DNA of 64,000 nt from Escherichia phage vB_EcoM-Sa45lw (MK977694.1), one strand, 5' to 3'. Positions 3,283 through 8,051 are shown, counted from the first letter of the stretch. Program-made: numbers and translations. Notes: generated from the letters alone by a model not told the origin.

Positions 3283-3312
3283 ATAGTACCATAGAAGAAC
3301 AGGGATGTAAAC
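3283..3312 (-). promoter_or_regulatory. sigma70-type T4-early-like promoter, repeat copy 1
   Basis: Minus strand reads GTTTAC (plus 3307-3312), 18 nt spacer, TGgTACTAT extended -10 (plus 3283-3288); A/T-rich upstream element; near-identical copies at 7223-7252 and 7554-7583. Confidence 0.5.
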
Positions 3313-3421
3313 AGTTTTGTGAAAAATTTTTAAAAAGTTTTGGGGAATTCTAGGGCAGGGAGGGGAAATCAAAGGATAGGATAATATATTATAAAGGGTA
3401 GAAACTAAATGATGTCTAGAG

Positions 3422-3437
3422 AGGCCTGGAAAGGCCT
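3422..3437 (-). other. palindromic hairpin AGGCCT-GGAA-AGGCCT
   Basis: Perfect 6 bp inverted repeat with tetraloop, downstream of the 3480..3953 gene. Confidence 0.35.
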
Positions 3438-3448
3438 AGATACCAAAA

Positions 3449-3474
3449 AGCCCCAACCTTTCGGCTAGGGCTAA
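3449..3474 (-). terminator. rho-independent terminator (minus strand)
   Basis: Minus strand: GCCCTAGCC-GAAA-GGTTGGGGC stem-loop followed by TTTTTGG, directly after the stop of 3480..3953. Confidence 0.6.
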
Positions 3475-3479
3475 GAATG

Positions 3480-3953
3480 TTATTTGATTTGTTTAGCAGA
3501 CCAAATGCGGTCTTTAATAATTTTTTGGATATCTTCAACATACTCAAGAGAGTGAGCATGTGGGTTATCTTTGAAACTATAAGCACGAGCTAGTTTTTGG
3601 CCTTCAGTTTTGATTACTAAAAGCTCTTTAAGGATAGCTTCATATTTGGAGATAATTCCTTTAACAATATTTTTCTCTTGTGCGACTTTAGGATCTGCTT
3701 TAGGAGCAGGTTTACCCGAAGCCTTTGCAAAAGCAGCGCCAGTAGCAACTAAACTTTTCCAGGCCATACTAACTGCATTTCCCGTAAATCCTTCCGCTTT
3801 CATGTCGCGTGCGAACTGGAATCGTGATTCATCAGAAGCATCTTTGTAAGAATATTTACCCGCTGCAATGGCTGCTTTTGCGACAGCTTGAATTTCGGTG
3901 CTAGATGCTTCATTTAACACCGCTTCATTTAAAAATTGAGTATATGATTTCAT
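3480..3953 (-). CDS. internal head protein-like (IPII/IPIII position), 157 aa, capsid-targeting N-terminus
   Basis: N-terminus MKSYTQFLNE|A resembles the T4 IP capsid-targeting sequence (MKTYQEFIAE|A) with an L-x-E prohead-protease site; TATAAATA late promoter upstream on minus strand; Ala/Lys-rich. Confidence 0.6.
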   Translation of the reverse strand: MKSYTQFLNEAVLNEASSTEIQAVAKAAIAAGKYSYKDASDESRFQFARDMKAEGFTGNAVSMAWKSLVATGAAFAKASGKPAPKADPKVAQEKNIVKGIISKYEAILKELLVIKTEGQKLARAYSFKDNPHAHSLEYVEDIQKIIKDRIWSAKQIK

Positions 3954-3993
3954 CTTATTTCCTGTTTTAATTCGTGGATTTAATATACTACTA

Positions 3994-4001
3994 TATTTAT
4001 A
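3994..4001 (-). promoter_or_regulatory. T4 late promoter TATAAATA (minus strand)
   Basis: Exact TATAAATA on minus strand about 40 nt upstream of the IP-like gene start. Confidence 0.55.
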
Positions 4002-4007
4002 CCAAAA

Positions 4008-4031
4008 AGCCCCAACCTTTCGGTCGGGGCT
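4008..4031 (-). terminator. rho-independent terminator (minus strand)
   Basis: Minus strand: AGCCCCGACC-GAAA-GGTTGGGGCT followed by TTTTTGG; nearly identical to the hairpin at 3449-3474. Confidence 0.6.
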
Positions 4032-4032
4032 A

Positions 4033-4340
4033 AGCCTTGCGGCAACCTTGTCGGGGTTCCACCTGCTAAGGCAAGTGTTTGTACGAAACGCCGGGATTCG
4101 AACCCGGTTATTAAGCAGTTGACGCTACTCAATATTTTTAAAAGGCCATATCTCGACCATATCCGAACGTTCCGTCAAAAACGCTACTCGGCTTACGGCA
4201 AAGATATTTCCTCGAATCGATAATTCGGTGCGCCGTTTCTGCTGTGATGTAAGAGGGCATCAATAAACGCAAAGATTATTAACGCAATTCCTTACTCAGG
4301 GAACATCAGTCCGACGACTTACCGGTAGCGACCCGGTTTC
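4033..4340 (-). ncRNA. candidate stable structured RNA region (no convincing ORF), with tRNA-like T-arm
   Basis: About 300 nt, GC-richer than flanking coding DNA, between a good-RBS gene and a terminator; contains CCGGGTTCGAATCCCGG (plus 4091-4107) and palindromes GAACGTTC and CGAAT..ATTCG; no acceptor or anticodon arm found. Confidence 0.3.
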
Positions 4341-4691
4341 TTAATATTCTTTTAAAGCATCAATCTGTTTACGGCGTTCACGCCATAAATCAATTGCTTC
4401 ATACGCGGATTCAACATTTCGAATTGGACGGCATTTATATAAAGATTTGTGATTTTGATATTGCGTAGATAACGGAATTTTATCTAAAAGGTCTTTACGT
4501 TCAAAGTATTCGTAACCATCTAAGCCAAATGAACGATTTTTGAGAAATTGCCAATGACCAAATTCGTTTTGAATATAAATATAATCCGCATGTTGATAAA
4601 GTAAATTAATTTCACGAAATGAGATATGTTTTTCATATTCATTGAAGTAAAATGTTAAATCATGAACTACTAAATAAACATTACCTTTCAT
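4341..4691 (-). CDS. hypothetical protein (116 aa)
   Basis: ATG at 4691-4689 with GAGGAAAAT RBS, immediately downstream of tRNA-Arg. Confidence 0.5.
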   Translation of the reverse strand: MKGNVYLVVHDLTFYFNEYEKHISFREINLLYQHADYIYIQNEFGHWQFLKNRSFGLDGYEYFERKDLLDKIPLSTQYQNHKSLYKCRPIRNVESAYEAIDLWRERRKQIDALKEY

Positions 4692-4709
4692 ATTTTCCTC
4701 ACTTATAAT

Positions 4710-6331: not shown

Positions 6332-6333
6332 TT

Positions 6334-6624
6334 TCACCACGCTGCATTAATATAAGTATATTTAATACATTCAAGACTTAAAGGATTCTTGAAAATATCA
6401 TATTCAAGAGGACCTTTTTCTGTTTCAATAAAGAAATCAAAATTTACTGTATTAAATTTACGGTCTTCCTTCACTAATTTAACCTGAGAAGATGAACGGT
6501 CAATGTAAACCTTTTCAACTTCAAAACATGTTAAAATGCCATAATCATCAATCAAGGCTTTAGCTGCTTCTTGATCATATTTATATCCATTTTCAATGGA
6601 CGATACTTTAGCATAAAGAATCAT
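6334..6624 (-). CDS. hypothetical protein (96 aa)
   Basis: ATG at 6624-6622; tight spacing with neighbours. Confidence 0.5.
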   Translation of the reverse strand: MILYAKVSSIENGYKYDQEAAKALIDDYGILTCFEVEKVYIDRSSSQVKLVKEDRKFNTVNFDFFIETEKGPLEYDIFKNPLSLECIKYTYINAAW

Positions 6625-6626
6625 TA

Positions 6627-7007
6627 TTACCCTTCATCAACAATAGTATGAGTGTGGGCATTTACAATTTGCCACCAATCAAAGCGATTAGAACCATACA
6701 TTGGTTTGTTCTCATTTTCTTTGATAATGTCACGGAGTTCATCTTCGGTAGCGGCTTTCGCGATTAAATCAGCATATCCACCGCGAGGATAATAATTATC
6801 ACCTGCAAAAAGTAAAAAGTTTGGTTTAATGTTATTGAACTCTTCAAGAGTAATAACTGTTCCACCAGGTTGAACAATATCTACATAACTATATCCTAAT
6901 TTTTGAGCAGCATCTACTGCTTCAAGCAAGGTATCATGAGCCCATCCAATTTGGCAATCTGGCTTTTCAGATGGATTAGCCTGATAATCTGCATATACTT
7001 TATACAT
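6627..7007 (-). CDS. hypothetical protein (126 aa)
   Basis: Track start is TTG; ATG at 7007-7005 (MYKVYADY) with GGTGAG RBS. Confidence 0.5.
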   Translation of the reverse strand: MYKVYADYQANPSEKPDCQIGWAHDTLLEAVDAAQKLGYSYVDIVQPGGTVITLEEFNNIKPNFLLFAGDNYYPRGGYADLIAKAATEDELRDIIKENENKPMYGSNRFDWWQIVNAHTHTIVDEG

Positions 7008-7008
7008 T

Positions 7009-7194
7009 TTACTCACCTTTAGAAATTTTATCCATAACGATAGCAATTAAACCAATTAAAAATGCTACTACAAGTGAAAATACATTTTCTGCTGTAGTTA
7101 ATAATCCGCATATAAATCCAACAAACATTGAAAAACTAAAAGCGGAAGCAGAAATTGCAATAGCAACATTTCGAATTAATTCACAGCGTTTCAT
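7009..7194 (-). CDS. small hydrophobic membrane protein (61 aa)
   Basis: ATG at 7194-7192 (MKRCELIRN) with GAGGAG RBS; single long hydrophobic segment; promoter repeat copy 2 immediately upstream. Confidence 0.45.
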   Translation of the reverse strand: MKRCELIRNVAIAISASAFSFSMFVGFICGLLTTAENVFSLVVAFLIGLIAIVMDKISKGE

Positions 7195-7222
7195 TTTATT
7201 CTCCTCAGTAGTTGATAGGGTA

Positions 7223-7252
7223 ATAGTATCACTACTAAAACCCCGTGTAAAC
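7223..7252 (-). promoter_or_regulatory. sigma70-type T4-early-like promoter, repeat copy 2
   Basis: Minus strand GTTTAC (plus 7247-7252), 18 nt spacer, TGaTACTAT (plus 7223-7228); shares a 25-30 nt identical block with copies 1 and 3. Confidence 0.5.
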
Positions 7253-7264
7253 AACTTTGTGAAA

Positions 7265-7522
7265 TTATTTTAAATCTTCTAATCGTTTCTTCATCTTAGA
7301 ACCATTTTTAGCGATTTCTCCTGCGTCAGAGCATAATGCTAAAAGTGCTTTAACTTTAGTTTGGTCTCCTTTAAAAGACGAAGGATCGACTGCAGCAGCA
7401 AGTTCTTTAATACGAGAGAAAAGACGCTCAGCTTCAGCTAAAGCCATTCCAAGCTTTACTTCCATACCATGAGAAGATTCAGTGATAATAGTTTCTGTAG
7501 CAAACTCTTTATAAGTTTTCAT
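7265..7522 (-). CDS. internal head protein-like (ipI position, adjacent to 57B), 85 aa, capsid-targeting N-terminus
   Basis: N-terminus MKTYKEFATE resembles the T4 IP capsid-targeting sequence; lies where T4 has ipI but the mature part does not resemble what I recall of T4 IPI; AGGAAAA RBS. Confidence 0.6.
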   Translation of the reverse strand: MKTYKEFATETIITESSHGMEVKLGMALAEAERLFSRIKELAAAVDPSSFKGDQTKVKALLALCSDAGEIAKNGSKMKKRLEDLK

Positions 7523-7543
7523 TTTATTTTTCCTAATTAATTT

Positions 7544-7583
7544 TGATGAGGTAATAGTATCACTACCTCATCAGTGTGTAAAC
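7544..7583 (-). promoter_or_regulatory. terminator hairpin overlapping promoter repeat copy 3
   Basis: Inverted repeat TGATGAGGTA..TACCTCATCA (7544-7573) followed on minus strand by AAAATTAATT; -10 TGaTACTAT lies in the hairpin loop, GTTTAC at plus 7578-7583. Confidence 0.5.
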
Positions 7584-7595
7584 AACTTTGTGAAA

Positions 7596-8051
7596 TTATT
7601 TTAAATCGTCTGCCCAATCAAGCTTAAGAGGTTCTTTGTATTCACGATCTAATACGACCGGAATTTGTACATCACCGCTAAATGATAAGGGCCCAACATT
7701 ATAAGACAATGTTATATGCGGCGTGTAATCGTCAAAATCATGTGTAGCACCTAGCGCCCGCGCATACATGTGTCGACAGCGCAGATATTCAGAATCTAGT
7801 ACAAGTACAAGAGTAGATCCATCTTGTGTTTTCCATACTTCTAAATGTCCAGAAGAAGCTACTTCAAAACTTCCGCTTGATGGAACATACGGAACATTTA
7901 CTCTTGAATAACATATAGTCGAATGAATTTTTTCTCTAGGAACTGGATTAGGAACACGTAAAGAGCGCTGAAGTTCTTCCAGCGCATCAAGTGTTAATTC
8001 TGAAAACTTAGCTGCTACATAAAGACCCGTTGAAAAGTCTTTAAATTCCAT
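7596..8051 (-). CDS. 57B: gp57B-like protein (151 aa)
   Basis: Position and size match T4 57B immediately downstream of 57A; ATG at 8051-8049. Confidence 0.7.

Follow-up and report, generated by a model that had tools for sequence, protein, structure and literature searches.

The window analysed here is a stretch of 64,000 nucleotides from Escherichia phage vB_EcoM-Sa45lw (MK977694.1), in which a cluster of tRNA genes separates two small genes whose products begin with a capsid-targeting sequence (CTS) of the T4 type, the leader of T-even internal proteins (IPs). One product, of 85 aa, is the already named internal protein Ip5 (Repoila et al. 1994), encoded in a known IP locus, and the other, of 157 aa, is an unrecognised, widespread IP candidate encoded elsewhere. 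Between 3000 and 8100 the window is 100% identical to JY01, an Escherichia phage of the genus Tequatrovirus, and shares 95-99% identity with numerous T4-like phages of E. coli, Shigella and Yersinia. The genes of this region lie on the minus strand throughout, and the order of transcription runs from gene 1 through 57A, 57B, the 85-aa open reading frame (ORF), trna.4, trna.3 and trna.2 to a 171-174-aa ORF, 11 tRNA genes, a 116-aa ORF, rnaD, rnaC, the 157-aa ORF and e.8.

The two genes and the elements tied to their leaders lie at the following positions, counted from the first letter of the window.

3480..3953, minus strand: 157-aa ORF, candidate internal protein of the RB32ORF133c / RB68_138 family, assigned from the ORF, its conserved CTS motif and its composition
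3909..3953, minus strand: codons 1-15 of this ORF, MKSYTQFLNE(cut)AVLNE(cut)A, comprising the CTS (Y4, F7) and two putative L-N-E sites of gp21 type (E10, E15), assigned from sequence
4710..5730, minus strand: 11 tRNA genes, clustered between the two CTS genes
7265..7522, minus strand: ip5, encoding internal protein Ip5 of 85 aa with the start MKTYKEFATE, assigned by phrog_3499 and UniProt identity
37052..37690, plus strand: gene 21, prohead protease (Pfam Peptidase_S77, E 1.5e-111)

A preliminary description of this DNA, made from the sequence alone, had reported both ORFs with their N-termini and had placed them on either side of the tRNA genes. Both were recovered as described, on the minus strand and flanking the cluster.

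Leaders, processing sites and packaging machinery

The CTS assigned to both proteins in that description is borne out by a six-frame scan of the whole window. With a loose pattern, M[KR][STA][YFW]..[FLIV] followed by at least 40 codons, only the 157-aa and 85-aa ORFs matched. A stricter pattern also matched 2 ORFs, where 200 first-order Markov simulations averaged 0.005 matches and none of them reached 2. Applied to the IP loci of T4, T2, fD1, UFV13 and Bas37, the loose pattern recovered all annotated IP genes, with few false positives, vs.6 among them.

The leaders MKSYTQFLNE and MKTYKEFATE both resemble MKTYQEFIAE: position 4 is aromatic and position 7 is phenylalanine. Amber-suppression genetics of IPIII has assigned targeting to residues 4 and 7 and processing to residues 8 and 10 (PMC9026906), and 10 CTS residues are enough to package foreign proteins such as green fluorescent protein (GFP). 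The 157-aa leader carries Y4 and F7 at the targeting positions and L8 and E10 at the processing positions. Putative gp21-type Leu/Ile-x-Glu sites are present in both proteins, two in the 157-aa protein (L-N-E10 and L-N-E15) and one in Ip5 (I-T-E15). Gene 21 itself stands among genes for the portal gp20, the core proteins gp67 and gp68, the scaffold gp22 and the capsid protein gp23 (GP67, T4_CASP, Gp23 and Portal_T4 matches), and gp21 is the enzyme expected to cut off the targeting peptides.

The predicted propeptide of the 157-aa protein comprises residues 1-10 or 1-15, which would leave a mature product of ~142 aa with an isoelectric point (pI) of 9.6 and 14% lysine. Together, the predicted mature forms of Ip5 and the 157-aa protein have pI 9.2-9.6 and 14% lysine, compared with pI 9.0-9.65 and 13-16% lysine in IPI*, IPII* and IPIII* of T4. 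Both proteins are thus small, basic and lysine-rich, and both appear dispensable on a laboratory host, the last trait being taken from their Bas37 orthologs in the HIDEN-SEQ data.

The 85-aa protein and the ipI locus

The preliminary description regarded both proteins as novel, and for the 85-aa protein this does not stand. The profile search that it had proposed as a check assigned this protein to phrog_3499, 'internal head protein' (E 3.7e-50), and over its full length it is 95% identical to the UniProt entries for Ip5 of RB70 (Q38378) and T2; its 90%-identity cluster takes in Ip5 of T6 (Q38630). The exact sequence also occurs in RB68 and wV7, and in wV7, PP01 and many other phages the gene is annotated as ip5 or internal head protein. 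Ip5 is found at more than 80% identity in ~270 phage records, and a paralog of 51% identity occupies the second IP locus, adjoining gene e, in ~230 further records. The near-identity to characterised IPs that was to count against the preliminary proposal is present in part, Ip5 being a named protein for which Pfam, NCBIfam and PHROGs hold no function past 'internal head protein'.

With 57B and trna.4 as its neighbours, the gene occupies the ipI position of T4, as had been proposed. The content of this locus varies among phages: ipI in T4 and fD1, ip5 with a 102-aa IP in T2, ip5 with a 77-aa IP in Bas37, and ip5 alone in the window. The notion of a hypervariable IP locus therefore holds for the ipI position, which is a polymorphic cassette, and does not extend to the 157-aa gene, which lies outside it in a separate cassette across the tRNA genes. 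The elements that define the ip5 cassette, with a related copy further along, are listed below.

7543..7611, minus strand: upstream 69-nt IP-cassette flank, with an early promoter of T4 type (TTTACA-17-TACTAT) and a stem-loop over the -10 box
7212..7280, minus strand: downstream 69-nt copy, before trna.4, 86% identical to the upstream copy
3272..3340, minus strand: third, weaker copy (62%) of the promoter/stem-loop element, before e.8, with a -10 box that ends at 3283

The 69-nt repeats are spaced by 331 nt, one on each side of ip5, and the gene accordingly has both the position (57B-trna.4 or denV-e) and the promoter/stem-loop flanks by which known IP loci are recognised. T4 ipI has almost the same upstream copy, Shine-Dalgarno sequence and first codons. 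At the level of sequence, the late box closest to ip5 lies within gene 1, likewise in T4. The early promoter and stem-loop elements before e.8, trna.4 and ip5 (TTTACA-17-TACTAT with TG) can be regarded as T-even analogues of PeSL shuffling cassettes.

Among Ip5 alleles, E10 is variable (K in the T2 type) and I13-T14-E15 is invariant; one allele has the 10-residue leader MQTYQTFITE. Cleavage of Ip5 after E15 is likely, because I-T-E15 is invariant whereas E10 is not, and would yield a 70-aa Ip5* of pI 9.2. The AlphaFold2 (AF2) model of Ip5 is a two-helix hairpin (predicted local distance difference test score, pLDDT, 74), and its comparison with the PDB gave no significant fold match, only generic helical-hairpin ones.

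Functional data for Ip5 come from two recent studies. In a screen against GmrSD enzymes, Ip1, Ip2 and Ip3 each blocked one enzyme, and ip4-10 showed no reproducible interaction with the panel of 8 active systems (Silas et al. 2025). The transposon data of the HIDEN-SEQ preprint include ip5 of phage Bas37 (KarlGJung, MZ501089), which is non-essential on K-12, with 18/18 TA sites hit (Extended Data Table 7). On the uropathogenic strain CFT073, ip5 mutants were ~4-fold depleted (log2 fold change, log2FC, -2.09; adjusted p 0), and on CFE299 and CFE303 there was no depletion (log2FC -0.01 each). The main text of the preprint does not discuss ip5. Mutants in the adjacent 57B ortholog, bas37_0262, also dropped on CFT073 (log2FC -1.56), and polarity is for this reason a possible component of the ip5 effect. 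We treat the depletion on CFT073 as a lead, not a result. The assignment of Ip5 as the McrBC inhibitor of Bas37 was considered and rejected, that inhibitor being bas37_0260, a different protein of 77 aa, and Ip5 being bas37_0261.

These data bear on a specific account of the targets, in which the target of Ip5 would be a type IV restriction enzyme, of the GmrSD family, in uropathogenic E. coli like CFT073, and the 157-aa protein would be another GmrSD/McrBC inhibitor of different specificity. The host-specific depletion of ip5 mutants would fit such a role, CFT073 encodes a GmrSD homolog, c5421, and type IV restriction is the target of 4/4 IPs whose targets are known. The lack of a reproducible effect of Ip4-10 on the 8 active GmrSD systems points the other way, as does the behaviour of T2, which carries Ip5 and lacks IPI and is restricted by the CT596 and UTI89 GmrSD enzymes. 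The drop of 57B (Acb1) mutants means that part of the CFT073 effect could stem from polarity or from a different defence, and nothing ties the 157-aa protein to any enzyme. On balance, this account is possible but doubtful.

The 157-aa protein and the rnaC-e.8 junction

For the 157-aa protein the claim of novelty survives. Its annotation is 'hypothetical' among the matches listed, which come from 511 phage records, and in all named cluster members, and the proposed profile search placed it in phrog_2280, a group of unknown function. Pfam and NCBIfam searches returned nothing for it and likewise no function for the neighbouring small ORFs. Among 1.8 billion representative proteins, a profile search retrieved a family of 13, with no cellular relatives, and the named members all belong to T4-like phages. 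In phage Aplg8 (KT184308) the 157-aa ORF is present and unannotated at 1481..1954 of the locus, on the minus strand; family counts based on annotation are therefore underestimates. The sole match of a PDB sequence search, to an alanine-rich designer pentatricopeptide repeat (PPR) protein, was rejected, as no stretch passed. Equally, no source names the gene as one of Ip4-Ip13, the lists in Repoila 1994, Rifat 2008, Bair 2007 and Comeau 2007 lying outside the sources covered.

All homologs of the 157-aa protein keep the leader motif aromatic-xx-F-L-x(0-6)-E followed by [AG], and it is retained at 35-42% identity in Yersinia phage fHe-Yen9-01 and in Klebsiella phages, where it reads MKFKEFLAE followed by AS. 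F7 and E15 are invariant, and indels are confined to the junction between leader and mature part. The AF2 model is all-helical (pLDDT 74), with a helical N-terminal domain (residues 20-78) in which the family is conserved, a Pro/Lys/Ala linker and a C-terminal helical hairpin, of which the Tequatrovirus type differs from the Klebsiella/Yersinia type. Searched against the PDB and BFVD, the model had no significant match but itself.

The gene is framed by elements of its own.

3994..4001, minus strand: T4 late-promoter box TATAAATA, 41 nt 5' of the 157-aa ATG, directly after the rnaC terminator
3999..4034, minus strand: upstream 36-nt direct repeat, consisting of the rnaC terminator hairpin and T-run, 92% identical to the downstream copy
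3440..3475, minus strand: downstream terminator hairpin repeat, 5 nt past the 157-aa stop codon, at a spacing of 559 nt

The order of terminator, TATAAATA, ~42 nt and ATG is also that of Bas37 and of the syntenic site in Jiaodavirus KEN39, and the late box is not present at this place in T4. These sequence features point to late transcription of the 157-aa gene. Compared with T4, the window has an insertion at ~3475..3998, and the repeat is common to both junctions; the gene is absent from T4 and T2.

A second CTS gene, bas37_0243, stands beside the 157-aa ortholog in Bas37, between e.8 and rnaC (locus 2029..2592, minus strand; 187 aa, MKTYAEFLTEAAKL...). Its relatives occur in 165 phage records and are always called 'hypothetical'. 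HIDEN-SEQ classes bas37_0243 as 'Essential' (1/48 TA sites hit), an unusual class for an internal protein. The homolog in KEN39, a Klebsiella Jiaodavirus, lies at locus 3495..4028 on the plus strand, encodes 177 aa (MKFKEFLAE...) and is upstream of the e.8 and e.6 homologs; two tiny coding sequences (CDS) annotated just 5' of it may be mis-called rnaC and rnaD.

The number of CTS genes at the rnaC-e.8 junction is 0 in T4 and T2, 1 in the window and 2 in Bas37, and the site is occupied in Klebsiella Jiaodaviruses. Because Arbiol et al. 2010 confine IP genes to two loci and to nowhere else in T-even genomes, the junction is a third polymorphic CTS-gene site within the literature covered, from which Repoila 1994 and Comeau 2007 fall outside. 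To judge from the synteny with Jiaodaviruses, the gene is probably an old resident of this site that T4 and T2 have lost through recombination of the two terminator copies, with the direction of change being what we infer. A position in one of the two classic loci is a trait of the known set of IPs and is not needed for the mechanism.

Evidence on the virion and on fitness comes from two orthologs; the paper on phages fPS-2, -65 and -90 reports no proteome. The protein g140 of phage fD1 differs from the 157-aa protein by 2 residues and passed the strict threshold for particle-associated proteins in liquid chromatography-mass spectrometry (LC-MS) of virions. This evidence is weakened because the preparation also held DenV, lysozyme, NudE, deoxynucleoside monophosphate (dNMP) kinase and 672 host proteins. 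In HIDEN-SEQ, the Bas37 ortholog bas37_0244 is non-essential on K-12 (29/34 TA sites hit, normal read counts), and its mutants are neutral on CFT073 (log2FC -0.11), CFE299 (-0.30) and CFE303 (-0.14). As ortholog mutants are neutral on these four hosts, no host defence is yet tied to the 157-aa family.

It is conceivable that the 157-aa product is an ordinary cytoplasmic late protein, neither packaged nor injected, with a CTS-like N-terminus that is a relic or a coincidence. The gene does lie outside the two loci to which the literature confines IP genes, neither annotation pipelines nor the literature covered ever call its product an IP, and the one piece of virion evidence stems from a preparation of low specificity. 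The leader is hard to reconcile with this account: it keeps the four positions defined by genetics and survives at 35-42% identity while the adjoining junction takes indels, and chance would yield 0.005 CTS matches per window. The dedicated late promoter is also conserved across genera, and a late protein with this leader would be expected in the prohead, as ten CTS residues package GFP. We consider a cytoplasmic role very unlikely.

Packaging through the CTS could alternatively serve the virion itself, the 157-aa protein being a basic part of the head that associates with DNA or assists the scaffold, a role that has been proposed for IPIII. Its composition (lysine-rich, pI 9.6) and mostly helical model with a long C-terminal helical hairpin would suit such a component, and IPIII mutants have assembly defects, loss of IPIII slowing head assembly and lowering burst size. 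The N-terminal domain is well preserved from genus to genus, where an arms race would be expected to produce extreme diversity, the ortholog has no host-specific phenotype in three clinical strains, and the neighbouring CTS gene bas37_0243 scores as essential. The transposon data on K-12, with most sites of the 157-aa ortholog hit and normal reads, argue against a role in the virion, and so does the normal head assembly of T4 and T2, which are without the gene. IPIII itself, moreover, proved to be a GmrSD inhibitor. A virion-serving role is accordingly quite unlikely, and the 157-aa protein is most likely a packaged, injected protein.

The other features between the two CTS genes, and those around them, are as follows.

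4081..4344 (approximate), minus strand: rnaC and rnaD, the small stable RNAs known as species 1 and 2, with positions carried over from the T4 alignment
4341..4691, minus strand: 116-aa ORF, phrog_3355, function unknown, without a CTS; T4 is without this ORF
5816..6340, minus strand: 171-174-aa ORF, phrog_2290, function unknown, without a CTS; T4 is likewise without it
7596..8051, minus strand: 57B, the Acb1 anti-CBASS phosphodiesterase (Pfam PF23474, E 2.6e-60), labelled 'RNA ligase' in JY01 and in the T4 RefSeq entry

The genes rnaC and rnaD were identified through T4 because Rfam gave no matching model for either: positions 3999..4341 of the window are 98% identical to T4 locus 7826..8169, which bears both. 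The window has 11 tRNA genes compared with 8 in T4, the extras being those for His, Asn and Tyr, and the homing endonuclease gene segB is not present in its cluster. ARAGORN calls a tRNA-Met (CAT) at 5158-5232, the place of tRNA-Ile in T4 and Bas37, and Rfam at the gathering threshold found 10/11 tRNA genes, missing tRNA-Tyr. The fD1 ortholog of the 171-174-aa ORF, g142, was flagged as particle-associated. Protein P0013 (94 aa, from a 2.9-kb contig) is a natural chimera of the N-terminal part of Trna.3 and the last ~34 residues of the 157-aa protein, the regions to compare in the window being 6627..7046 and 3480..3580, and it suggests recombination among these small genes.

Interpretation and comparison with known systems

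Taken together, these observations are consistent with two CTS proteins that are packaged, trimmed by gp21 and injected, one being the known Ip5 and the other the unrecognised 157-aa member, with both acting most likely as early inhibitors of host defence. We hold this reading to be probable. The 157-aa gene would be transcribed late from its own promoter, and its leader, like that of Ip5, would bind the gp22 scaffold core in the prohead. There gp21 would remove 10-15 residues after a Leu/Ile-x-Glu site, and the mature proteins would be kept in the DNA-filled head and ejected into the cell with the DNA. These steps from transcription to ejection rest on sequence and on the demonstration that a 10-residue CTS suffices to package foreign proteins. 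By analogy with characterised IPs, the proteins may then, within the first minutes of infection, stoichiometrically inhibit a defence that acts on the incoming glucosyl-hydroxymethylcytosine (glucosyl-hmC) DNA. The preliminary description had likewise put both forward as anti-defence candidates, and this remains the best guess by that analogy, because all IPs with a known target (Ip1, Ip2, Ip3 and Bas37_0260) inhibit type IV restriction.

Several points weigh against this reading. The 157-aa gene lies between rnaC and e.8, with terminator repeats for flanks, and therefore has neither the position nor the promoter/stem-loop setting of the known IP loci. The fD1 preparation that contained its ortholog also contained non-structural and host proteins, and the Bas37 ortholog is neutral on the clinical strains. 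Ip4-10 had no reproducible partner in the GmrSD panel, and T2 is restricted despite its Ip5. Both AF2 models reach medium confidence only and offer no hint of function, and cleavage, injection and the anti-defence target are, for both proteins, steps that we infer.

A bolder version would make the rnaC-e.8 junction an undescribed third CTS cassette site of the Tevenvirinae, with a 157-aa family injected against a defence other than GmrSD or McrBC and hence a new class of target. This version is rather unlikely; if it is true that the family counters such a defence, a new target class would be added to the injected arsenal.

No counter-defence of T-even phages acts earlier than the injected internal proteins, and each of those with a known target is very narrow in specificity. 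The 157-aa family, which bears every sequence mark of an IP and whose records include therapeutic and O157-typing phages, offers a concrete candidate for a host barrier that is so far unexplained, and searching the two classic IP loci alone undercounts the injected repertoire. For Ip5, the public transposon data point to CFT073 as a host where the target could be found. The finding is useful and directly testable, and would come as no surprise to a T4 specialist.

With respect to Ip5 of T2, T6 and RB70, the 85-aa ORF encodes the same protein in the same slot between 57B and trna.4. The allele of the window has Y4 and E10, in contrast to F4 and K10 of the T2 type, and I-T-E15 is unchanged.

Ip5 resembles T4 IPI in its locus, in a near-identical promoter, stem-loop and Shine-Dalgarno sequence, and in its small, basic mature protein. 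The two share the leader type MKT[YF]KEF, and the late site I-T-E19 of IPI parallels I-T-E15 of Ip5. As the preliminary description had noted, the mature part of Ip5 is unlike that of IPI, with no sequence similarity beyond the leader. The solved nuclear magnetic resonance (NMR) structure of IPI* has two beta-sheets flanked by helices, whereas Ip5 is modelled as a two-helix hairpin. IPI* is a GmrSD inhibitor, whereas T2, with its Ip5, is unprotected from the CT596 GmrSD enzyme.

The 157-aa protein can be compared with IPII and IPIII (Ip2 and Ip3), the inhibitors of the GmrSD enzymes of ECOR21 and ECOR17. Its leader MKSYTQFLNE shares M1, K2, Y4, F7 and E10 with MKTYQEFIAE, S3 and L8 being conservative, and in predicted mature size (142 aa) and charge it is intermediate between IPII and IPIII. 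It differs in having no similarity past the leader, in its site at rnaC-e.8 rather than denV-e, and in its own late promoter and terminator-repeat flanks.

Compared more widely, neither protein of the window has sequence similarity beyond the leader, or a significant fold match, to IPI*, Ip2, Ip3 or Bas37_0260. This says little on function, because those inhibitors are themselves mutually unrelated.

The arrangement of ip5 between promoter/stem-loop repeats is that of the PeSL/IP cassettes (Arbiol et al. 2010, where it is attributed to Repoila et al. 1994). The ip5 and 157-aa arrangements both fit excision or insertion by recombination of flanking repeats, although the 157-aa cassette differs in carrying terminator hairpins and a late, not early, promoter.

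A functional precedent is Bas37_0260, a recently recognised IP of 77 aa (MKTYQEFIAETADVK...) with a CTS, from the ipI locus, that inhibits McrBC (HIDEN-SEQ preprint 2025). It is a different protein and is not in the window, and Bas37 itself also has Ip5 and the 157-aa ortholog. Bas37_0260 has only the leader in common with IPI-III, and its example shows that a CTS gene without a name may encode a restriction inhibitor.

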